Of a DNA stretch of 64,000 nt, positions 1-37,369 are shown in pieces. The notes beneath the pieces are model-generated. The model saw nothing but the letters and a program-made list of their open reading frames with translations. It had not been told where the DNA came from and searched no databases. The DNA is from Candidatus Nanoarchaeia archaeon (GTDB lineage Archaea; Nanobdellota; Nanobdellia; WJKC01): contig JBAZFG010000001.1 of assembly GCA_041653515.1 (NCBI GenBank), positions 74,332 to 138,331 on the forward strand, in the 5' to 3' direction. The stretch's first letter is position 1. Each line of letters opens with the position of its first letter. A program made the translations under genes and the position numbers.

Positions 1-756
1 AAAGCAGTTTTAGAAGATGTTAGTTTGTTGAGGGATTCACTTGATACTGTTAGTAACTTCATTAATGAAGGAACGTTTACTTTGAGTAATAATGGCTTGT
101 CATTAGTGGCGATGGACCCTGCTAACGTGGCAATGGTCTTATATGACTTATTGGCAAGTGCTTTTGTTGAGTATGAATGCACGGCTGAGTCAAAATTAAC
201 AATTAATATTCCTTATTTAGTTTCAATCCTTAAGCGCTCAGGCGCTGGCGACCGAGTTGAGTTAAAATTACTTGATGGTAGTAACTCCATGACTATTAAG
301 ATGGTTGGCGATTCAACCCGTACTTTCACTTTGCCGTTGCTGGAAGCTCATGGCAGCGCGGTTAACCCACCAGCTAAATTAAGTGATGGCTTCAAGTCAG
401 AAGTTGAGGTAGAAGCGTCAGTCTTGCGTGAAGGCGCTAAGGATGCGTTAATGGTTAGTGACTGTGTTTTATTATCAAGCACTAATGACTCGTTTGTGAT
501 GAAAGCCTTGAGTGATACTAATGAAGTTAACTTACAGCTCGGCAAGGACTCGCCTAGCCTGTTAAGGCTTGAGTCAAAAGAGCCTGTGAAGAGCAAGTAC
601 TCATTGGAGTACATTGATAAGATGATGAAGGTTTCAAAGATTGTTAAGACAGTGACCATTAAATTCGCTAATGAGTACCCATTGCAACTTGATTACGCTG
701 CGATGGATAAACTAAAAGTCTCGTTCATCCTGGCGCCAAGAATAGACACTGAGTAA
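1..756 (+). CDS. pcna: DNA polymerase sliding clamp PCNA, 5'-partial (gene starts before the window)
   Basis: Protein matches archaeal PCNA from its N-terminal region (…KAVLEDVSLLRDSLDTVSNFINEGTF… in frame from position 1). The reading frame is open from base 1 and stops at TAA 756-758. Confidence 0.85.
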   Translation, partial: KAVLEDVSLLRDSLDTVSNFINEGTFTLSNNGLSLVAMDPANVAMVLYDLLASAFVEYECTAESKLTINIPYLVSILKRSGAGDRVELKLLDGSNSMTIKMVGDSTRTFTLPLLEAHGSAVNPPAKLSDGFKSEVEVEASVLREGAKDALMVSDCVLLSSTNDSFVMKALSDTNEVNLQLGKDSPSLLRLESKEPVKSKYSLEYIDKMMKVSKIVKTVTIKFANEYPLQLDYAAMDKLKVSFILAPRIDTE

Positions 757-2322
757 AATTTATAATAAAGTTTATTTTAATATTTTACAATGAATGAAGA
801 ATATTATAATTATTGTTTAAAAAATGAGTGCTTTACTAATACTGAATTTAGTGATTACCTTTATTTTAGAAAGATTCCTGATTATATCAAAAATGGGAAA
901 ATTAGGAATGGTTTAATTAAAATTCATAAGAAGTATATCAAATATGTTAAAAGTGAGAATTTTAGTTTTTTTGAAGAATTTAAAAAGTTTAAGATAAGTA
1001 CATCTGATAAATTAATTAAATTTAATGATTCTTTGTTAAAGTTAACAATTAATAAAGACGAATTAAAGTTTTTACTTGATGTTAAAATCTTTTTAGTTAT
1101 CTGCAAAAAAAGAATGGTTTGGCTTAAAAAAAATTTTGATAGTATATTTAATGATTTTAATGATTTCTTAATTGGTAATAAACTAGCTAAAAAGAAGCTA
1201 AAACCTATTGATTGGGGTTTTTTTAAATCAGTGGATTTTTCAGGCGCTTATGGCATGACTTCTCTTTTTTCAAATAAAACTTATTGGGGTCTTTTTTTAA
1301 TCTGCAGTCTTTTAGGATTAGGTGCTTTTAGTTTTGTTTTGTCTTTATTACAAAATTGGAGAAAAAAGTTTATCAGTATTGCTAATGATTTTGTTAGCAT
1401 TACTGATAATGGTGCTGTAAAAACAGGTGAAGTTAAATTACTTCAAGAAGGGACAATTGAATTAGTCTTGATTCATGAGCTCGCCCATTACTATTCAATA
1501 TCCATTTTAGAGACATTATATCAGACGGTTAAGGGTGGCTTAAAAAGATTTAAGGGTAAAGCAATTGATATCAATTCAGAGCAGGAGGGGCTGGCCGAAG
1601 CCTTTGCAATCAGTTTTGCTAAAGCAAAAGGGATAGATTATACTGAGTACTGGGATTGCTCAACTTTTGATTATAAAAGTTATTTTTTCGAAAGAGTTTT
1701 GAAATATGATTCAATTACTGCTATGAAGAAAGTCTTTAATTATGATGATTACAGAGCTTACTCTAAAGAGGTTGTTATTTACCTTGAGAATTTAAAAGTT
1801 GATAGTGAATATTTTAGTGAGAGAGTATCAAAAGGGGGCATATTGAACGGTTTTAAATTGATTAAATCTGGAAAAATGAAAGATGAAGATACTTTGCGTG
1901 TATTATTTGAGATAAAAGACTTATTTTTACGATTTAATCAATTCTTTAGATCATTGAGTTATTATTTAAGCGAAAACTCATATATTTTAAAAAGATTTTT
2001 ATGTGCTCTTGGGGTTACTAGAAATAAGGATTTTAAGAATTGTGTAGATGAATTACTTGGTTTGACTGAAAATCAATATTCTTTTTTAAAGAACAAGGAT
2101 CATAATACCTTTTTATCTGAAGATAACCAGATTACTTTTTTAAGTAATTTGAATAATTTAGTGCGTAAAGTTAATGAATTAGAAAAAAAGAAGTTAAATA
2201 TTGATGCTGACGTAATTAATATTGTTTTGAATGCTTTAAAAAATATTAAATTGTTATTGAAAGGTTAGTTTTTAAGATGGTAACAATATTTCTCTAGCGC
2301 CAAGAATAGACACTGAGTAAAA
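733..2322 (+). mobile_element. 1.54 kb AT-rich insertion flanked by a perfect 26-bp direct repeat (733-758 and 2297-2322) that duplicates the last 8 codons and stop of PCNA
   Basis: gcgccaagaatagacactgagtaaaa occurs twice and the second copy still encodes LAPRIDTE*. The interior is visibly more AT-rich than the flanks and carries one ORF (790-2268). Confidence 0.6.
790..2268 (+). CDS. hypothetical membrane-anchored protein with HExxH zinc-metallopeptidase-like motif (HELAHYY, downstream EGLAEAF); cargo of the insertion
   Basis: 492 aa ORF, Lys/Asn/Phe/Ile-rich with very low GC. It has one predicted TM helix (YWGLFLICSLLGLGAFSFVLSLL) and an HEXXH motif. Confidence 0.5.
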   Translation: MNEEYYNYCLKNECFTNTEFSDYLYFRKIPDYIKNGKIRNGLIKIHKKYIKYVKSENFSFFEEFKKFKISTSDKLIKFNDSLLKLTINKDELKFLLDVKIFLVICKKRMVWLKKNFDSIFNDFNDFLIGNKLAKKKLKPIDWGFFKSVDFSGAYGMTSLFSNKTYWGLFLICSLLGLGAFSFVLSLLQNWRKKFISIANDFVSITDNGAVKTGEVKLLQEGTIELVLIHELAHYYSISILETLYQTVKGGLKRFKGKAIDINSEQEGLAEAFAISFAKAKGIDYTEYWDCSTFDYKSYFFERVLKYDSITAMKKVFNYDDYRAYSKEVVIYLENLKVDSEYFSERVSKGGILNGFKLIKSGKMKDEDTLRVLFEIKDLFLRFNQFFRSLSYYLSENSYILKRFLCALGVTRNKDFKNCVDELLGLTENQYSFLKNKDHNTFLSEDNQITFLSNLNNLVRKVNELEKKKLNIDADVINIVLNALKNIKLLLKG

Positions 2323-9131: not shown

Positions 9132-10076
9132 ATGATTAACATAATAATATTAATCCTATCACTTAGTGTCTTAATGTTCTCAAGCGGCAAGGCTGTTAAG
9201 TACGTGATGAAATTATCAAGAATTTTTGGCATTAGCGAAATGTCAGCTGGTTTCATTATTTTATCAGTGGCCACTTCACTGCCTGAATTAGTTGTTTCAA
9301 TTAATGCTGCGATGATTGGTGAGGGCGCGCTCGCTGTAGGCAACGTTCTTGGTTCAAATATTGCTAATATTACTATCATCCTTGGTTTAGCAGTGATTAT
9401 TAGTCGTAAGCGAAAAATTGTTTTCACCAAAAAAGTGTTTGATAACTTGATTGAATTCCTTTTTATTTCATCATTAATCCCATTGTTTATCTTGCAGACA
9501 GGCCATGTTAGTCTTGTGCTTGGCATAGTGCTTATCTCACTTTTCATTTTCTTCAGCTTTAAGACCCCTACAAAAGTTAAAGGCATTGAGGGCATTCATG
9601 TCGTGTTTAAGAAAGATAAGATATTAGTTATAATAAAATTCGTGATTGCCGTAATAATAGTAATTATTTCATCTAACTTTGTGGTTGATAGTAGTGTTAA
9701 TATTGCTGCGTTATTTTCAATCCCACCATCAATTATTGGCGCAACAGTTATCGCTCTGGGCACGTCACTGCCTGAATTAACCACTACTGTTCAGGCATTT
9801 AGGAAAAGATTATATAACGTTGGTTTAGGCAATGTTATTGGCAGTTGTATTACTAACCTGACTCTGATTCTTGGCATTACTTCAATATTTAATAATGTTC
9901 AATTAAACATTGTGTCTTTTACTTCACTTACTTTGTTTGCGATAATGGCTTCAATGATTACTTGGTATTTTGTCAGCACTGGCCGTCGCTTGGATAAACG
10001 CGAAGCATTCTTACTAATTGGTCTTTACACAATATTTATATTGCAAGAGCTTGGTTTCTCTTTGTTTGTATTATGA
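9132..10076 (+). CDS. CaCA-family cation/Ca2+ exchanger (YrbG-like) membrane protein
   Basis: Two alpha-repeats (GNVLGSNIANITIILG; GTSLPELTTTV) and ~10 TM helices. Confidence 0.7.
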   Translation: MINIIILILSLSVLMFSSGKAVKYVMKLSRIFGISEMSAGFIILSVATSLPELVVSINAAMIGEGALAVGNVLGSNIANITIILGLAVIISRKRKIVFTKKVFDNLIEFLFISSLIPLFILQTGHVSLVLGIVLISLFIFFSFKTPTKVKGIEGIHVVFKKDKILVIIKFVIAVIIVIISSNFVVDSSVNIAALFSIPPSIIGATVIALGTSLPELTTTVQAFRKRLYNVGLGNVIGSCITNLTLILGITSIFNNVQLNIVSFTSLTLFAIMASMITWYFVSTGRRLDKREAFLLIGLYTIFILQELGFSLFVL

Positions 10077-10930
10077 AAATAGGTCGAGTTAAACTTAATA
10101 GTAATTTATTGTTGGCGCCAATGCTTGGTTTCACAAATAGTGCTTTTAGGCACTTATGTCATGATTACGGTGCTGGCTTAGTTACTACTCCGTTAATCAA
10201 TGAGAACGCTGTTCTGAATAACCCTTTAATTATTGACGCGGTTCCGGGCGAAGCGGTTCAATTAATTGGCAGTGACCCAATTAAATTATCAAGAGCAGCT
10301 GTTATTGCCCAGCCTCATTGTGATTTAATTGACCTTAATTTTGGTTGCCCTGCTACTCGCGAAGCCGTTTGTGGGGTTGGTGCTATCCTCTTGAAGAAAC
10401 CTGCTTTGATTAAAAAATTAGTTAGCAGTGTTGTCAAGTCAGTTGATTGCCCAGTGACTGCTAAGATTCGCCTTGGCTTTGATAAGATTAACGTGATTAA
10501 AGTCGCTAAAGCAATTGAGTTTGCTGGCGCGTCAGCCATCACTGTTCACGCCCGGCTTGCTAGTCAGGATTATTCAGTGCCTGCTGACTGGCCTTGGATT
10601 AAGCGAGTTAAGGAATCAATCAGTATCCCTGTTATTGGCAACGGCGACGTTAAAAATCAGGCTGACGCTAATCAGATGATTAGTGAAACTAACTGTGATG
10701 CTGTGATGATTGGCCGGGCTGCTATTGGTAACCCGTTCATCTTTAAAGGGGTTGAGCCATCAGTCAAGGATCGTCGCATTGCTTTTAAGAAATTAGTCAG
10801 TTATGATTGTCCAATGCAGGACTTGAAATTACAAGCACTAAATTTTGTTAAAGGACTGCCCGGTGCTGCGCGAATAAAACAATCAATAATGAAAGCAAGT
10901 AATGAAAAAGAATTAATCAATTTCTTATAA
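10073..10930 (+). CDS. dus: tRNA-dihydrouridine synthase (Dus family)
   Basis: LAPMLGFTNSAFRHL… DLNFGCP … TIM-barrel Dus motifs. Confidence 0.8.
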   Translation: MKIGRVKLNSNLLLAPMLGFTNSAFRHLCHDYGAGLVTTPLINENAVLNNPLIIDAVPGEAVQLIGSDPIKLSRAAVIAQPHCDLIDLNFGCPATREAVCGVGAILLKKPALIKKLVSSVVKSVDCPVTAKIRLGFDKINVIKVAKAIEFAGASAITVHARLASQDYSVPADWPWIKRVKESISIPVIGNGDVKNQADANQMISETNCDAVMIGRAAIGNPFIFKGVEPSVKDRRIAFKKLVSYDCPMQDLKLQALNFVKGLPGAARIKQSIMKASNEKELINFL

Positions 10931-10931
10931 C

Positions 10932-11051
10932 CCCAATTATCCTTGGGCTTGTGTTATCATCCCAAGGCGGGGGACAGATTCCCCCTCCTCTAGGCTACTC
11001 CGCCCCTTTCTGCTTAATTATCCCAATTATCCTTGGGCTCGTGTTATCATC
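10932..11051 (+). repeat. 30-bp direct repeat (10932-10961 / 11022-11051, 1 mismatch) flanking a 60-bp GC-rich hairpin insert that contains the gattccccctc core
   Basis: cccaattatccttgggctYgtgttatcatc occurs twice. The insert carries a GGGGGA-cagat-TCCCCC hairpin. DR1 begins 1 nt after the dus stop; DR2 plus the insert encode the C-terminus of the minus-strand gene. Confidence 0.7.
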
Positions 11052-11888
11052 ATATATTACTGATGGCCCAATCAATACTATTGTTTTTTCAAGCATTACT
11101 TTATCTTTTAATTCTGCTTGCCTTGATAGTAAACCGTTGATGACCATGAATTTTTTTAACTCGCCTTTGAAGAATCTTGATTTAATTATTTCACCACTCA
11201 ATTCTTTTGTTTCTTTTAGCTCGTTACTTAAGATTGAGCCTCGCTCTAAGTCCTTCACATCGCAGTTCTTGAGCGAGACCCCAACCCGCGCGGGCCAATT
11301 AATCTCTTTATAATCAACGTCCATTGATTGCATGCTGTTTAATTGGGCTGGCCTGCCACCAGGCAATAAAACAAATTTATCCTTAACCTTGATTGTCCCG
11401 CCTTTAGTGAAACCAAGCGCTACTGTGCCAACATTCTTGATGTTAAAGAAGTGGTCAATGATGATTAATGGTTCATTTCCATACACTGGCTCAATCATCA
11501 GTAAATCATCTTTTAATTGTTTGATGTCATCATTATTGTTTATTATTCTAAAGTTATAATCAAGGCCAAAACTCTTGACTTGCTCAACTAAGTGTTGCTT
11601 GTCTAGCGGCACAATGAAACAGCCTTTCTTGCCCAGCAAGTCCAATAGTATTATTATCTCGCCAAAGAATTTGTCAACAGCGCTTAACTCAACCACGACG
11701 TAGTCAGTCATGTTAACTGCCTGAATCAGGGTCTTGATTTTTTCCGGAAAACCAATCGGCCTAACAATTGTTAGCACTGAATCAGTTTTCTTATAATGAA
11801 GAAATTCAAGGTCACTAACTGTTGCTTTATTGCCAAGCATTTTAGCTGTCTCGTCACTACCAATAAAACAAGCGCAAACATTTTTCAT
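10995..11888 (-). CDS. EF-Tu/aIF2-gamma-fold protein with degenerate (non-canonical) GTP-binding motifs
   Basis: Domain order is collinear with translational GTPases (G-like domain, beta-barrel domain II GTVALGFTKGGTIKV…, domain III). However, the P-loop GHVDHGKT is replaced by GSDETAKM and no NKxD is present. Confidence 0.5.
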   Translation of the reverse strand: MKNVCACFIGSDETAKMLGNKATVSDLEFLHYKKTDSVLTIVRPIGFPEKIKTLIQAVNMTDYVVVELSAVDKFFGEIIILLDLLGKKGCFIVPLDKQHLVEQVKSFGLDYNFRIINNNDDIKQLKDDLLMIEPVYGNEPLIIIDHFFNIKNVGTVALGFTKGGTIKVKDKFVLLPGGRPAQLNSMQSMDVDYKEINWPARVGVSLKNCDVKDLERGSILSNELKETKELSGEIIKSRFFKGELKKFMVINGLLSRQAELKDKVMLEKTIVLIGPSVIYDDNTSPRIIGIIKQKGAE

Positions 11889-17363: not shown

Positions 17364-17765
17364 TTAAGTTATTTTCTTAAATTCCTCAATCCTTTTTGAA
17401 TGTTCAATTTCCCAGTCTTTATCAGACTCATTAGGCTTATAGCATTCTATAAATTCAATATTATTACTTATTGTTCTTAATAATTCTCTTGCTTTTTTTG
17501 TTGGGTGCGAAGCACATATGATTACATCACATCCTTTTTCTTTTAATGGAATTAAATATTTCTTTAGCCAAGCAGGAGCGTCTCCAACGCTACAAATCCC
17601 TATTATTTTTCCATTATGGATAAAACTTAAACAAAAATCTTTTCTTATTTTTGGTCTCAAAACACAAATACTTGATTTAAAATATTCTTCCAGAATTTTT
17701 TTTATTGTCGTGCTTTTACCAATTTTTGCTTTACCTTCAAAACAGATTATTTTAGGGTTATCCAT
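17364..17765 (-). CDS. mini P-loop NTPase / NMP-kinase-like protein (133 aa)
   Basis: Walker A GKAKIGKST right after the start MDNPKIICFEG. The ORF-track N-terminal extension (MLLNLVLI x3) is read-through of the tandem repeat and is rejected. Confidence 0.5.
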   Translation of the reverse strand: MDNPKIICFEGKAKIGKSTTIKKILEEYFKSSICVLRPKIRKDFCLSFIHNGKIIGICSVGDAPAWLKKYLIPLKEKGCDVIICASHPTKKARELLRTISNNIEFIECYKPNESDKDWEIEHSKRIEEFKKIT

Positions 17766-17790
17766 AAATAAATCAATAAAATCACTTTTT

Positions 17791-17886
17791 AAAAGCATTA
17801 TTAATACTAAATTTAAAAGCATTATTAATACTAAATTTAAAAGCATTATTAATACTAAATTTAAAAGCATTATTAATACTAAAAAA
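17791..17886. repeat. 24-bp tandem repeat, ~3.75 copies (aaaagcattattaatactaaattt), immediately upstream of the P-loop gene
   Basis: Perfect head-to-tail copies at 17791, 17815 and 17839, with a partial copy at 17863. Confidence 0.9.
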
Positions 17887-25086: not shown

Positions 25087-25158
25087 TAAGAGATTTTATT
25101 ATTATAACATTATAAAGATCATTGTAATTCAGTTCTCATTTTATCCCTGAACGCGCGA

Positions 25159-25340
25159 ATCATTAATGGGTGTATTAGTGGGTTCTTATCATACTCGACC
25201 GCAGGGAGAAGTATCCCCCTTCAGTCTTGAGAAACCCTGATTCCCCCTCTACGTTTATTTTGTCTTAATGGCGTTACTGATTAATTCCTTGAATTTTCTT
25301 ATCATTAGTGGGTGGATTAATGGGTTCTTGTCGTAATTGA
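25159..25340 (+). repeat. ~40-bp imperfect direct repeat (25159-25198 / 25301-25340, ~85% identity) flanking a GC-rich core (25199-25254) that contains ctgattccccctc
   Basis: The copy inside the gene encodes …YDKNPLIHPLMI of the radical-SAM/ArcS protein. The distal copy encodes the same peptide followed by an alternative tail, RAFRDKMRTELQ*. Confidence 0.65.
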
Positions 25341-33713: not shown

Positions 33714-33893
33714 ATTATTCTTTTTTTAGTTTAGTAAACTATTTAAAACTATCTTTGCGTTCAATTGTTCACCACTGTGTCACCCCAATAATACAGTGAT
33801 GGGAAGCCATTCGTGGCTTCCCACTGTTTTATATTTATTTACCACTATTAGTGGTGCTAATGTTTATAAAGTGATTATTTACTAATTCATTTA

Positions 33894-36358: not shown

Positions 36359-36489
36359 CTTAAGACACTTAAGTTAATAAGTAGTATAAATATAATTTCA
36401 AGGCGACCGAAGCCGCCCTGAAACAGCGTTTGAGGGATAACAACACACTTTTGACAAGGAGCGTTGTTACAAGAATAGTTCTGTTTTAA

Positions 36490-37057: not shown

Positions 37058-37297
37058 ATGAATGTTGGTTTTAAAATCGCTGGCGTTATCTGTTTAGTCC
37101 TAGGTGTTATTGGCGCCTTAGGTGTTTTAGGAACAACTAACCCATTGAGCATTATTAGTGACCCATTATTTAACCTAACTAAATTATTCCTCACTGACAG
37201 CGGCTCATTCTTCCTATGGGTCTTTATCATCGTGCTTGGCTTAACGCTCGTTGGCCCAAGTAAAGGTTTTATTAAAGGCATGGCTACGCGAAAGTAA
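37058..37297 (+). CDS. small membrane protein (79 aa)
   Basis: 2 TM helices. The stop codon lies inside DR1 of the downstream element. Confidence 0.4.
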   Translation: MNVGFKIAGVICLVLGVIGALGVLGTTNPLSIISDPLFNLTKLFLTDSGSFFLWVFIIVLGLTLVGPSKGFIKGMATRK

Positions 37298-37369
37298 GCT
37301 TTATTAAAACAAAGGGGCTGTGCCCCTCTTGACTCCCCCTTTCTTTGAAAGTAAGCTTTATTAAAACAA
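37290..37369 (+). repeat. perfect 23-bp direct repeat (37290-37312 / 37347-37369) flanking a 34-bp GC-rich hairpin insert containing cttgactccccct
   Basis: gaaagtaagctttattaaaacaa occurs twice and includes the stop codon of the upstream gene. The insert has an AGGGGC-tgt-GCCCCT hairpin. Confidence 0.75.

Follow-up and report, generated by a model that had tools for sequence, protein, structure and literature searches.

Short GC-rich hairpins lie between copies of housekeeping gene ends in a lineage of Candidatus Nanoarchaeia

One lineage of Candidatus Nanoarchaeia (DPANN archaea) carries a family of GC-rich hairpins inserted in an unusual way, at the ends of housekeeping genes and flanked by copies of those gene ends. 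Our preferred reading, held with middling confidence, is that the hairpins are mobile, palindromic inserts lacking genes, that their entry at gene 3' ends creates a long target duplication whose length varies, and that filled alleles then recombine between lineages. The sequence studied is the core genome of a Candidatus Nanoarchaeia metagenome-assembled genome (MAG), represented by a stretch of 64,000 nt (hereafter the window). Its genes include PCNA, exosome, proteasome, and aminoacyl-tRNA synthetase genes, which identify it as archaeal chromosome.

An earlier note on this DNA described three GC-rich segments in an AT-rich genome, each with a G-run/C-run hairpin and each bounded by duplicated gene ends. 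All three segments were found again (Table 1), and the observation of hairpin inserts between gene-end copies is confirmed; the genome is AT-rich only to a moderate degree (36% GC). Folding of each insert gives the described hairpin, and the motif AGARGGGGGARTC is common to all three on the minus strand. The core proposed as their shared feature is indeed shared, but it belongs to a longer motif accompanied by the hairpin. On the G-rich strand, the anatomy consists of an optional G-motif (AAAGGGGGAG-like) followed by a hairpin with arms (CTCTAG)AGGAGGGGG and CCCCCTCCT(TGAG), and the family inserts are non-coding and about 28–69 nt long.

Chance occurrence of the core at these loci had been put forward as a refutation. 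With at most one mismatch, TGAYTCCCCCT occurs five times in the window versus 0.82 expected (2 of 100 window shuffles reach 5), and its three best matches fall at the three loci, in each case on the plus strand. This identical orientation would arise by chance in one case in four. A covariance model, built from a poor MAFFT alignment of all six hairpins, re-finds the known copies, with the locus 1 insert as its best match (35.9 bits), and detects no copy in the window beyond the three loci; its information content is low, so that weak copies may be missed. Logan contigs from run SRR18595300, assembled apart from the MAG but possibly from the same read set, match loci 1 and 2 at 100% identity. 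When the window was scanned with Rfam 15 at gathering scores, only a 5S rRNA and a tRNA were returned and the inserts matched no family, while scanning the three loci under permissive settings yielded nothing beyond sub-threshold chance matches; an origin as a tRNA- or rRNA-derived fragment or a known non-coding RNA is thus unsupported. None of the 60 window ORFs scanned matched a transposase, integrase, reverse transcriptase, or Cas1.

Table 1. Genes, inserts, and gene-end copies at the three window loci (positions are those of the window).
Feature	Position	Strand	Basis
Dus (tRNA-dihydrouridine synthase) gene	10073..10930	+	ORF; Pfam PF01207 on identical Logan contig
Locus 1 displaced end of 297-aa gene, DDNTSPRIIGVIRN and stop	10927..10961	-	repeat alignment
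Locus 1 insert, TAAGCAGAAAGGGGCGGAGTAGCCTAGAGGAGGGGGAATCTGTCCCCCGCCTTGG	10962..11016	-	folding, covariance model, alignment to L009 copy
Locus 1 in-gene repeat copy (..YDDNTSPRIIG..)	11017..11051	-	ORF, repeat alignment
297-aa GTPase-like gene	10995..11888	-	ORF
Locus 2 displaced native gene end (copy B), YDKNPLIHPLMIRAFRDKMRTELQ and stop	25119..25193	-	comparison with L002
Locus 2 GC-rich insert, ACGTAGAGGGGGAATCAGGGTTTCTCAAGACTGAAGGGGGATACTTCTCCCTGCGGTCGAG	25194..25254	-	folding, covariance model
Locus 2 in-frame, imported gene end (copy A), YDKNPLIHPLMIRKFKELISNAIKTK and stop	25255..25335	-	comparison with L002, L039
Radical-SAM + DUF5591 (archaeosine-synthase-like) gene, 419 aa annotated, MFA5405845.1	25255..26514	-	ORF
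79-aa membrane-protein gene	37058..37297	+	ORF
Locus 3 repeat copy 1, GAAAGTAAGCTTTATTAAAACAA, stop codon included	37290..37312	.	repeat alignment
Locus 3 insert, AAAGAAAGGGGGAGTCAAGAGGGGCACAGCCCCT, G-motif then hairpin	37313..37346	-	folding, covariance model
Locus 3 repeat copy 2, matching copy 1 at 23/23	37347..37369	.	repeat alignment

Every family copy seen, in the window and in relatives, is flanked by direct repeats of 8 to 84 nt. Within the window, the repeats are 23/23 at locus 3, 35 nt at 91% identity at locus 1, and 64 nt at 72% at locus 2; in relatives they are 8 nt (L089), 16 nt exact or ~25 nt with three mismatches (L009), and 84/84 (L011). The duplications thus span a tenfold range of lengths at six unrelated target sequences, and the inserts are homologous. 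The previously reported range of 23–40 bp holds for loci 1 and 3 but not for locus 2, whose repeat is longer and more diverged. Repeat boundaries lie at or beside stop codons at every locus, and at loci 1–3 the repeats map to the ends of neighboring genes as first described; they are copies of those particular ends and not generic terminator sequence. A repeat scan of the whole window shows loci 1 and 3 to be the only unique-sequence, close-range direct repeats of at least 23 nt and at least 90% identity, and 30 window shuffles produced no direct repeat of at least 16 nt within 300 nt. The sole other repeat family of this length, range, and identity in the window is a 24-nt tandem array. A hairpin scan of ~0.69 Mb and the covariance model, neither of which requires repeats, found no repeat-less family member; G4/C4 hairpins of unrelated lineages have no such repeats. 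The junctions of the perfect repeats (84/84, 23/23, 16/16) show no microhomology.

Three further copies occur in relatives. One (L089–L093) occupies the locus 1 site in an 85%-identical lineage, with an 8-nt repeat, and is identical in five metagenomes from different projects. Another follows a GluRS-like gene (L009, 14805–14873; repeat 16–25 nt), and the third lies between a 5S rRNA gene and an HD-domain gene (L011, 2563–2590; perfect 84-nt repeat). Two of the new copies were first found by a repeat-based screen. The locus 1 copy and the L009 copy, which comes from an unrelated locus in a 70%-identical relative, align end to end over 58 columns, non-stem positions included (score 45 versus a shuffle mean of 12.7; 0 of 500 shuffles). 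Because these two copies align in this way, the window inserts and the copies in relatives are, as far as sequence can tell, one dispersed family; the common motif and hairpin likewise agree with the single element family first proposed. The sample is seven copies at six loci, a thin basis for rules on repeat length, orientation, or targeting. Of 80 loci from a metagenome scan for more distant relatives, L009 and L011 are the only ones with family members, and neither the six loci from a corresponding genome-contig scan nor ~58 kb of additional non-redundant sequence from 58–69%-identical relatives (L101, L103, L105, L107, and duplicate contigs) contains one. As to the full-length relatives carrying an integrase that the earlier note proposed to look for, ~0.7 Mb of AT-rich clade loci screened for arm sequences yielded no long element between the arms, and the 60 window ORFs included no integrase.

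The perfect repeats of 23, 84, and 16 nt look like target duplications made at insertion, a reading of their sequence that departs from the general recombination at gene ends first suggested. At locus 3, the repeat holds the last two codons and stop of the 79-aa gene plus the 15 nt after it, and the site is empty in L095, a 58%-identical relative. An exact look-up of the 79-aa and 170-aa window proteins found none on record outside the source contig. In L011, the target is made up of the end of a 5S rRNA gene and spacer; the tail of the HD-domain gene there is itself present twice, the copies being separated by no more than TTGAC and differing at two positions, both silent.

Locus 2 departs from this pattern. 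Its insert contains a pair of G-motifs and folds into two hairpins (-23.3 kcal/mol on the minus strand, z = -2.3), and the repeats (25135–25198 and 25277–25340, spacing 142) correspond to the last ~25 codons of the radical-SAM/DUF5591 gene. No plus-strand gene is present here to be terminated. The closest relative, L002 (87%-identical protein), represents the empty site: the insert and copy A together form a 142-bp insertion that L002 lacks, and deleting these 142 bp makes the two sequences collinear, with 97% identity across the junction. Copy B, now non-coding, matches L002 from its first base, so that the right junction is abrupt; it is identical at 70/75 nt to the functional gene end of L002, whose protein ends like copy B. 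Copy A, which ends the window gene (..MIRKFKELISNAIKTK and stop), differs from copy B at eight nucleotides within a stretch of 13 codons, and none of these differences changes an amino acid. In the 33 nt that follow, copy B agrees with L002 at 29/33 and copy A with the natural tail of L039 at 26/33, but copies A and B agree at only 19/33. By these sequence comparisons, the tail now in frame is homologous but foreign, and it is the native tail that has been displaced, in keeping with the recombination at gene ends proposed earlier.

Other accounts of locus 2 were rejected. Duplication in situ followed by divergence does not explain why the non-coding copy B is nearest to the relative's functional tail, or why the changes in the coding copy A relative to B are purely synonymous for 13 codons, after which A resembles the tail of another lineage. 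A diversity-generating retroelement was discarded on inspection, as the copy differences are not adenine-specific and no reverse transcriptase was found in the window. Translational bypass or an intron was likewise dismissed: tail A is homologous and has the look of a natural gene end, and the spacing of 142 nt is not a multiple of 3.

At locus 1, the Dus stop codon (10928–10930) abuts the downstream repeat copy; this displaced end no longer codes for the 297-aa gene and overlaps the Dus stop. The insert contains two G-motifs, the second of which forms the hairpin GGGGGA/TCCCCC, and the last codons of the 297-aa gene (KGAE and stop) come from the insert. The repeat has a 30-nt core with one mismatch. 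Between repeat and element lie 11 nt, ATAATTAAGCA, that match the natural tail of the 85%-identical lineage (R; L089–L093), and the right junction falls within a GATGAT common to the R-type filled allele and the window gene. A C/D-box sRNA arising from the GATGAT in the repeat was considered, and on inspection the boxes do not fit. The site is filled in two lineages whose flanks are 70–85% identical, and the hairpin GGGGGAATCTGTCCCCC, loop included, is identical in both, yet the window repeat copies differ at only 1/31 nt. Given this combination, the pattern of filled sites seems to fit neither simple shared ancestry nor simple independent insertion.

Because the locus 2 repeat copy is diverged and foreign, and because the repeat and the element at locus 1 are separated by 11 nt of R-type tail, these two loci do not appear to be simple target duplications and would need a second step. 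Our preferred reading therefore has two. In the first, suggested by the anatomy of the copies, an element would enter a new site along with a variable target duplication of 8–84 nt. The insertions that survive would be those at gene 3' ends or between convergent genes, since the genome is almost without spacers: the duplicated stretch would regenerate the stop codon and tail, leaving both neighboring genes intact. The bias toward gene 3' ends may accordingly reflect where insertions are tolerated and not a targeting rule. In the second step, which the comparisons above show for locus 2 and make arguable for locus 1, a filled allele moves between diverged lineages by recombination, using homology in the gene on one side and in the repeat or element on the other, such that a foreign functional tail comes into frame while its native counterpart ends up beyond the hairpin. 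A stagger this variable speaks against a transposase of fixed geometry. A route linked to replication or repair fits better, for instance fill-in of staggered breaks, or ligation into the nascent strand of a 5' flap that carries the hairpin and has escaped processing; action in trans by an IS1634-like transposase could also be responsible. The hairpins may also have a host role, for example in terminating transcription or insulating genes that are tightly packed.

A bolder form of this reading, which we offer tentatively and consider rather unlikely, is that the hairpin is self-contained mobile DNA with no dedicated transposase. The hairpin, resisting nucleases and capping the 5' end of a displaced strand (a flap or repair intermediate), would be ligated into new DNA, and the displaced stretch would then be present twice, giving the 8–84-nt duplications. 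As each copy carries a spare local gene end, the unit of gene end plus hairpin would be able to home by recombination into the same gene in diverged lineages, replacing gene tails.

The earlier note recognized no described class of element here. Both long variable target duplications (PMC2853133, PMC2266710) and mobile GC hairpins (PMC4478555) are in fact known, but we found no description in the literature of the two combined. In the "insertion with long target duplication," known since 2000 from genome comparison and without a mechanism, long and variable repeats flank the insert, align with a single copy at a related empty site, and often span a stop or start codon, which leaves the target gene intact (PMC2853133). 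No transposase or integrase is involved; the inserts carry restriction-modification gene units of kb size, a DNA-breaking cargo that was proposed as the cause, and the screen of Furuta, Abe and Kobayashi (2010) required repeats >30 bp and kept no archaeal case (PMC2853133). Our family is similar in its variable, long repeats, of which those of 84, 64, and 35 nt pass the >30 bp limit and those of 23, 16–25, and 8 nt fall below it, and in its empty sites, which align with one repeat copy (locus 2 with L002, locus 3 with L095). It differs in that the inserts are 28–69 nt, gene-less, and of one sequence family, and in that one repeat is foreign.

Direct repeats of IS1634 and IS1549 are also long and variable (8–514 bp) and have no mechanistic model (PMC2266710). 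This parallels a single family with target duplications of widely varying length. However, IS1634-family elements are 1.5–2 kb, with a DDE transposase between inverted repeats, whereas our inserts are at most 69 nt and no copy has such an ORF. We know of no miniature derivatives of the IS1634 family. In form, our inserts resemble yeast mitochondrial GC clusters such as GC42, non-coding GC-rich hairpins of ~40 nt in an AT-rich genome, which move from one species to another through homologous recombination at conserved flanks; their units merge and shuffle, their flanking repeats are 2–3 nt (AG, ACT), and they lie mostly in large spacers (PMC4478555). Both are short, dispersed GC hairpins with no coding capacity and with short and long forms, but ours reside at gene ends on an archaeal chromosome and not in an organelle, have repeats of 8–84 nt, and share no sequence similarity with the yeast clusters.

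MITEs and REP elements, which are presumably mobilized in trans, are similarly non-coding, hairpin-forming, and dispersed. Terminal inverted repeats like those of MITEs are present, in that most of the short form (L011, L089) consists of the arms AGGAGGGGG and CCCCCTCCT (9–12 bp); however, these arms are the hairpin itself, whereas MITE repeats end a longer body. MITEs have a recognizable parent insertion sequence, whose transposase sets a short target duplication of fixed length, and here the lengths are 8, 16–25, 23, 31–35, 64+, and 84 nt. A parent insertion sequence with the same ends and a transposase was found neither among the 60 window ORFs nor in ~0.7 Mb of clade loci; finding CTCTAGAGGAGGGGG and CCCCCTCCTTGAG inverted 0.5–3 kb apart around an ORF would make the elements MITEs. 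REP elements produce no target duplication and are mobilized by RAYT transposases. Ectopic CRISPR spacer integration by Cas1-Cas2 differs in that its duplication has a fixed, repeat-like length and its inserts, of ~30–40 bp, are unrelated to one another; in our case the inserts are homologous and none of the 60 ORFs is a Cas1. In yeast FEN1 (rad27) mutants, flap ligation generates duplications of ~5–100 bp, and hairpin 5' flaps resist processing. These fall in the same size range and may offer a mechanistic lead by analogy, but they are plain tandem duplications, unlike a dispersed inserted element.

Among alternatives to a mobile hairpin, the one that survives best, although we regard it as unlikely, requires no transposition: one-sided (homology-facilitated illegitimate) recombination or break repair would copy a gene end and GC hairpin from a related cell. 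One junction would form by homology within the gene and the other by end-joining or microhomology directly after the hairpin; lying upstream of the recipient's own gene end, this second junction would leave the duplication, and the hairpin would mark where synthesis, resection, or uptake stops. Such an origin could account for loci 1 and 2 in one step. It agrees with the foreign in-frame tail, displaced native tail, and abrupt right junction of locus 2, with the 11 nt of relative's tail and the GATGAT junction of locus 1, and with the hairpin adjoining an abrupt junction at every copy. The duplicated HD-gene tail of L011 also favors it, as does the report that long target duplications occur mostly in naturally competent species (PMC2853133). 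However, it requires a donor with a hairpin at the same site and leaves the first arrival at six unrelated sites unexplained; the hairpin and covariance scans found no duplication-free member that might be such a donor, and the perfect repeats lack the junction microhomology.

Less probable still is that the hairpins are native functional elements (terminators or insulators, stabilizers of RNA 3' ends, or protein-binding palindromes), with repeats arising by slippage or tandem duplication provoked by the palindrome and likeness arising from common function. All copies do lie at gene 3' ends or between convergent genes, and the locus 1 hairpin is identical in two lineages despite its diverged flanks. 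The C-rich strand has T-rich sequence after the hairpin, the L089 copy has a 10-bp stem then AUUUAAU, and the clade has other conserved GC hairpins that lack repeats, for example at 36395–36424. Yet in an intrinsic-terminator scan only locus 3 of the three loci passes, on the minus strand, and terminator-like sites are not enriched in the window (7 versus 12.1 expected; 19 versus 12.8). Locus 2 offers no plus-strand gene to terminate, loci 2 and 3 are empty in close relatives, and the locus 1 and L009 copies are alike over their full length at unrelated loci. Moreover, slippage would duplicate the hairpin plus its flank and would not set a single hairpin between once-contiguous copies.

We consider it improbable that the inserts are attL/attR scars of integrase-driven viruses or plasmids whose body was deleted, analogous to CIME elements. 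The order at locus 2 (gene, replacement tail, foreign DNA, displaced native tail) is that of classic integration into the 3' end of a tRNA or protein gene, with a foreign end in frame and the native end displaced. A replacement 3' end is found at locus 2 only, or arguably also at locus 1, and the locus 2 insert, at 61 nt, has no integrase. Each of the six target sequences would demand an att specificity of its own, yet the remnants are homologous, with repeats of 8 to 84 nt, and independent events would have had to shrink the remnant to the same 28–69 nt. No long element bounded by the arm sequences was found when ~0.7 Mb of AT-rich clade loci was screened, and none of the 60 ORFs is an integrase. 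Two viral-contig searches with the element sequences gave only four chance matches in unrelated contexts and lend a viral origin no support. An artefact of metagenome assembly, with variants from different strains joined in tandem at a gene end, might be suspected because the source is a MAG and locus 2 juxtaposes two variants of one gene end, but it is very improbable: the Logan contigs reproduce loci 1 and 2 exactly, the copy of the 85% relative is identical across five metagenomes, relatives from other assemblies have the same anatomy, and such joining would not place a shared GC-rich hairpin between variants.

On our preferred reading of a mobile hairpin, a 28-nt palindrome bearing the signature of insertion with long target duplication would mean that cargo is unnecessary, and it would supply a minimal substrate for tests of mechanism. 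If the hairpin moves with no transposase of its own, it would represent a new mode of transposition and a gene-free minimal case of such insertions. Annotation is affected as well: at loci 1 and 2 the inserts alter protein C-termini, and the pseudo gene ends left behind are open to mis-calling. Gene ends would be swapped between lineages more than 15% apart in DNA sequence, and for DPANN archaea, with their extremely compact genomes, this would be a route by which new DNA enters between abutting or overlapping genes while destroying neither.

Exact protein matches place the window on a 232,779-bp contig of a Candidatus Nanoarchaeia archaeon MAG (locus tags WC307_), and thus in a DPANN archaeon. 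The window contains 77 non-overlapping ORFs with spacers nearly absent; gene packing is extreme, with many adjacent ORFs touching or sharing a few bases. Core genes include those for PCNA, exosome subunits, proteasome alpha, RNase P p30, several aminoacyl-tRNA synthetases, archaeosine tRNA-guanine transglycosylase, and ribonucleotide reductase, while the RNA genes are a single lone 5S rRNA and a tRNA-Gly. Among the 60 window ORFs scanned, none matched a transposase, integrase, reverse transcriptase, or Cas1.

An earlier note described three GC-rich hairpin inserts, each bounded by duplicated gene ends, in an AT-rich genome. All three segments are present in the sequence at the positions it gave, and the overall observation stands with two corrections only: at 36% GC, the window is only moderately AT-rich, and the locus 2 repeat is longer and more diverged than stated (table). 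Folding predicts a G-run/C-run hairpin in each insert, and the three share one anatomy, in which a AGARGGGGGARTC-like G-motif precedes a second G-run paired with a C-run. The core motif has five matches in the window (0.82 expected), of which the best three are loci 1, 2, and 3, all on the plus strand. With filters off, a covariance model of the hairpin, itself weak, found exactly these three window copies. In a whole-window scan, loci 1 and 3 are the sole unique-sequence close-range direct repeats of at least 23 nt and at least 90% identity; shuffled windows contained no close-range direct repeat of at least 16 nt. The only other family at the 23-nt, 90% thresholds is a 24-nt tandem array that overlaps the start of ORF 17364..17870(-) and extends just upstream of it.

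Coordinates of the inserts, their direct repeats (from the repeat search), and other structured features
Feature	Position	Strand	Details
Locus 1 insert	10962-11016	G-rich strand, window minus	..AAGCAGAAAGGGGCGGAGTAGCCTAGAGGAGGGGGAATCTGTCCCCCGCCTTGG
Locus 1 direct repeats	10927-10961 / 11017-11051		35 nt at 91%
Locus 2 insert	25194-25254	G-rich strand, window minus	ACGTAGAGGGGGAATCAGGGTTTCTCAAGACTGAAGGGGGATACTTCTCCCTGCGGTCGAG
Locus 2 direct repeats	25135-25198 / 25277-25340		64 nt at 72%, spacing 142 nt
Locus 3 insert	37313-37346	G-rich strand, window minus	AAAGAAAGGGGGAGTCAAGAGGGGCACAGCCCCT
Locus 3 direct repeats	37290-37312 / 37347-37369		23 nt at 100%
Tandem array	17764-17883		24-nt unit TTTAAAAGCATTATTAATACTAAA, ~4 perfect units + 1 degenerate
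13-bp GC hairpin	36395-36424	minus	GTTTCAGGGCGGCTTCGGTCGCCTTGAAAT, in 130-nt spacer 36359-36489
Two-hairpin motif	33770-33830	minus	window
Two-hairpin motif	967-1017		relative L105
Two-hairpin motif	183-229		relative L107

As the earlier note proposed, the flanking repeats at all three loci are copies of the adjacent gene end. The locus 3 repeat comprises the final two codons and stop of a 79-aa membrane-protein gene plus 15 nt of spacer, and the locus 2 repeat the final ~25 codons of a radical-SAM/DUF5591 (archaeosine-synthase-like) gene. The locus 1 repeat carries codons ..DDNTSPRIIG of a 297-aa GTPase-like gene (minus strand) and lies directly against the stop codon of Dus, the convergent gene; the 297-aa gene now ends ..GIIKQKGAE*, within the insert, and the displaced copy, which overlaps the Dus stop, would encode ..GVIRN*. 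Two protein C-termini are altered by inserts (window 10995-11051 and 25255-25335): the last residues of ..GIIKQKGAE in the GTPase-like protein are insert-encoded, and the archaeosine-synthase-like protein has a foreign 13-residue tail. The displaced locus 1 tail lies in frame 30 codons downstream, where TAG read-through would append it.

Relatives provide both empty and filled versions of these sites. The closest homologue at locus 2 (P0001, 87% identity) ends ..MIRALRDKMRIELQ, like the displaced gene end (copy B, 25119-25193) and unlike the in-frame one (copy A, 25255-25335), and its contig, L002, is without the insert. Minus 142 bp (25194-25335), the window is collinear with L002, with 97% identity in the 60-nt bin across the junction versus ~83% overall. 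The locus 3 site is a plain 42-nt spacer in a 58%-identical relative (L095). At the convergent junction of locus 1, an 85%-identical relative, R (P0122; L089-L093, five metagenomes), has a shorter insert, TAG-AAGGGGGAATCTGTCCCCCTCCTTGGGATG, flanked by two copies of the 8-nt ATTAAATA, where both stop codons would overlap. The hairpin, including its loop, is identical between the window and R, whereas the flanks are only 70-85% identical.

Copies A and B at locus 2 both encode YDKNPLIHPLMIR, with 8 nt differences, which fall in 7 codons and are all synonymous. In the 33 nt that follow, copy B matches L002 at 29/33 and copy A matches the natural tail of another lineage, L039 (..MIRKFKENISKELI*), at 26/33, while agreement between A and B is just 19/33. 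This divergence pattern traces the 142 bp, made up of tail A and the hairpin, to an allele of this gene in another lineage; sequence comparison thus shows, rather than implies, a foreign segment with the native tail displaced behind the hairpin. In-place duplication is ruled out here, since untranslated B is conserved and translated A would need to converge on the other lineage's tail. At locus 1, repeat and element are separated by 11 nt (ATAATTAAGCA) homologous to R's natural tail (ATAATTAAATA), and the right junction falls inside a GATGAT found in both the window gene and R's filled allele. This hints at a foreign tail here too, with an ambiguous site history.

AT-rich loci of relatives were screened for close direct repeats around GC-rich DNA and, separately, for G4/C4 hairpins with repeats not required. 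The repeat-based screen yielded two additional copies, and the repeat-independent screen recovered the same two. In L011, from a 68% relative, two perfect 84-nt repeats enclose a perfect palindrome (CTCAAGGAGGGGAAACCCCTCCTTAGAG); each repeat contains the terminal 25 nt of the 5S rRNA gene and the entire spacer as far as the stop of an HD-domain gene in convergent orientation. In L009, from a 70% relative, a 69-nt insert (AATCAACAAAGGGGGAGAAATATCTCTAGAGGAGGGGGAAATGTGTGCCCCCTCCTTGAGATATACATA) downstream of a GluRS-like gene stop is flanked by two copies of TACACGCATCCATAAT, stop codon included; it aligns with the window locus 1 insert over 58 columns (score 45; shuffle mean 12.7, 0/500 shuffles). 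Judged by sequence similarity, the GC hairpin inserts are one dispersed family, because lineages whose protein sequences differ by ~30% have homologous inserts at unrelated loci. All seven copies (six loci) have local flanking duplications (8, 16-25, 23, 31-35, 64+, and 84 nt), whereas GC hairpins of unrelated lineages have none. The family appears lineage-restricted and sparse, since ~58 kb of additional non-redundant sequence from 58-69% relatives contained no copy. In L011, the HD-domain gene's final 31 nt, including the stop, also occur twice (2411-2475) with only TTGAC between; the two differences are silent, ATA/ATT (Ile) and TGA/TAA (stop). This duplication lacks a hairpin, lies 3 nt away from the 84-nt repeat that flanks the hairpin copy, and may be a site after hairpin loss or a product of the same process.

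Two other structured features were observed. A two-hairpin motif, which precedes a 237-aa gene in the window and GlyRS in relatives, has no Rfam match and is a candidate small structured RNA. Its second hairpin, CACTGTATTATTGGGGTGACACAGTGG, is 27/27 identical across lineages ~30% apart in protein sequence; the first differs (GGGAAGCC..GGCTTCCC in the window versus GGGGAGGG..CCCTCCC in L107), with apparent compensating changes in both arms, by eye. The 13-bp GC hairpin, in an unusually long spacer, lacks flanking repeats and is separate from the insert family; it may be a terminator or an ncRNA, and its leader CCTCAAACGCTGTTTCAGGG recurs in a 64%-identical relative (L005 1817-1856), where the stem is different yet paired.

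Yeast mitochondrial GC clusters are likewise gene-less GC hairpins of an AT-rich genome, whose units merge and are exchanged across species via homologous recombination; unlike the inserts described here, their own flanking repeats are just 2-3 nt (PMC4478555). In the open-access literature, we came across no gene-less palindromic element described as having long, variable target duplication, and no such palindromic elements reported from DPANN archaea. We rate the finding a variation on known kinds, not categorically new. A putative host role of the hairpins as terminator or insulator is possible but unsupported; terminator-like hairpins in the window are no commoner than in shuffled sequence.

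We favor a two-step route, in which insertion with target duplication is followed by allele spread through recombination. The first step would be de novo insertion with a long, variable duplication, because all seven copies have a duplication, in four of them perfect or nearly so and without junction microhomology, and six unrelated targets are used. Duplication lengths that vary tenfold speak against a fixed-stagger transposase or Cas1-type integrase. Compatible routes would be filled-in staggered breaks, a hairpin-capped flap that escapes processing and is ligated, or trans action of an IS1634-like enzyme (PMC2266710). In the second step, filled alleles would spread among lineages, as shown at locus 2.

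An origin by recombination alone, with a homologous junction on one side and an illegitimate one beside the hairpin, would account for loci 1 and 2 in a single step; we consider it unlikely, as it explains neither first arrival at new sites nor perfect long repeats. Native hairpins with slippage duplications are a still weaker prospect, at odds with the empty sites and with full-length similarity across unrelated loci. That the inserts are att-site scars of integrative elements fits the layout of locus 2 but is improbable given six targets, tiny homologous remnants, and the absence of an integrase among the 60 window ORFs. An assembly artefact is very improbable, since separate assemblies and samples agree; Logan contigs of SRR18595300 match loci 1 and 2 base for base.

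Under the favored two-step route, the location at gene ends would most simply be a survival filter in a spacer-poor genome, because a duplication spanning the stop codon(s) keeps both neighbors intact, a point also made in PMC2853133 for its own cases.
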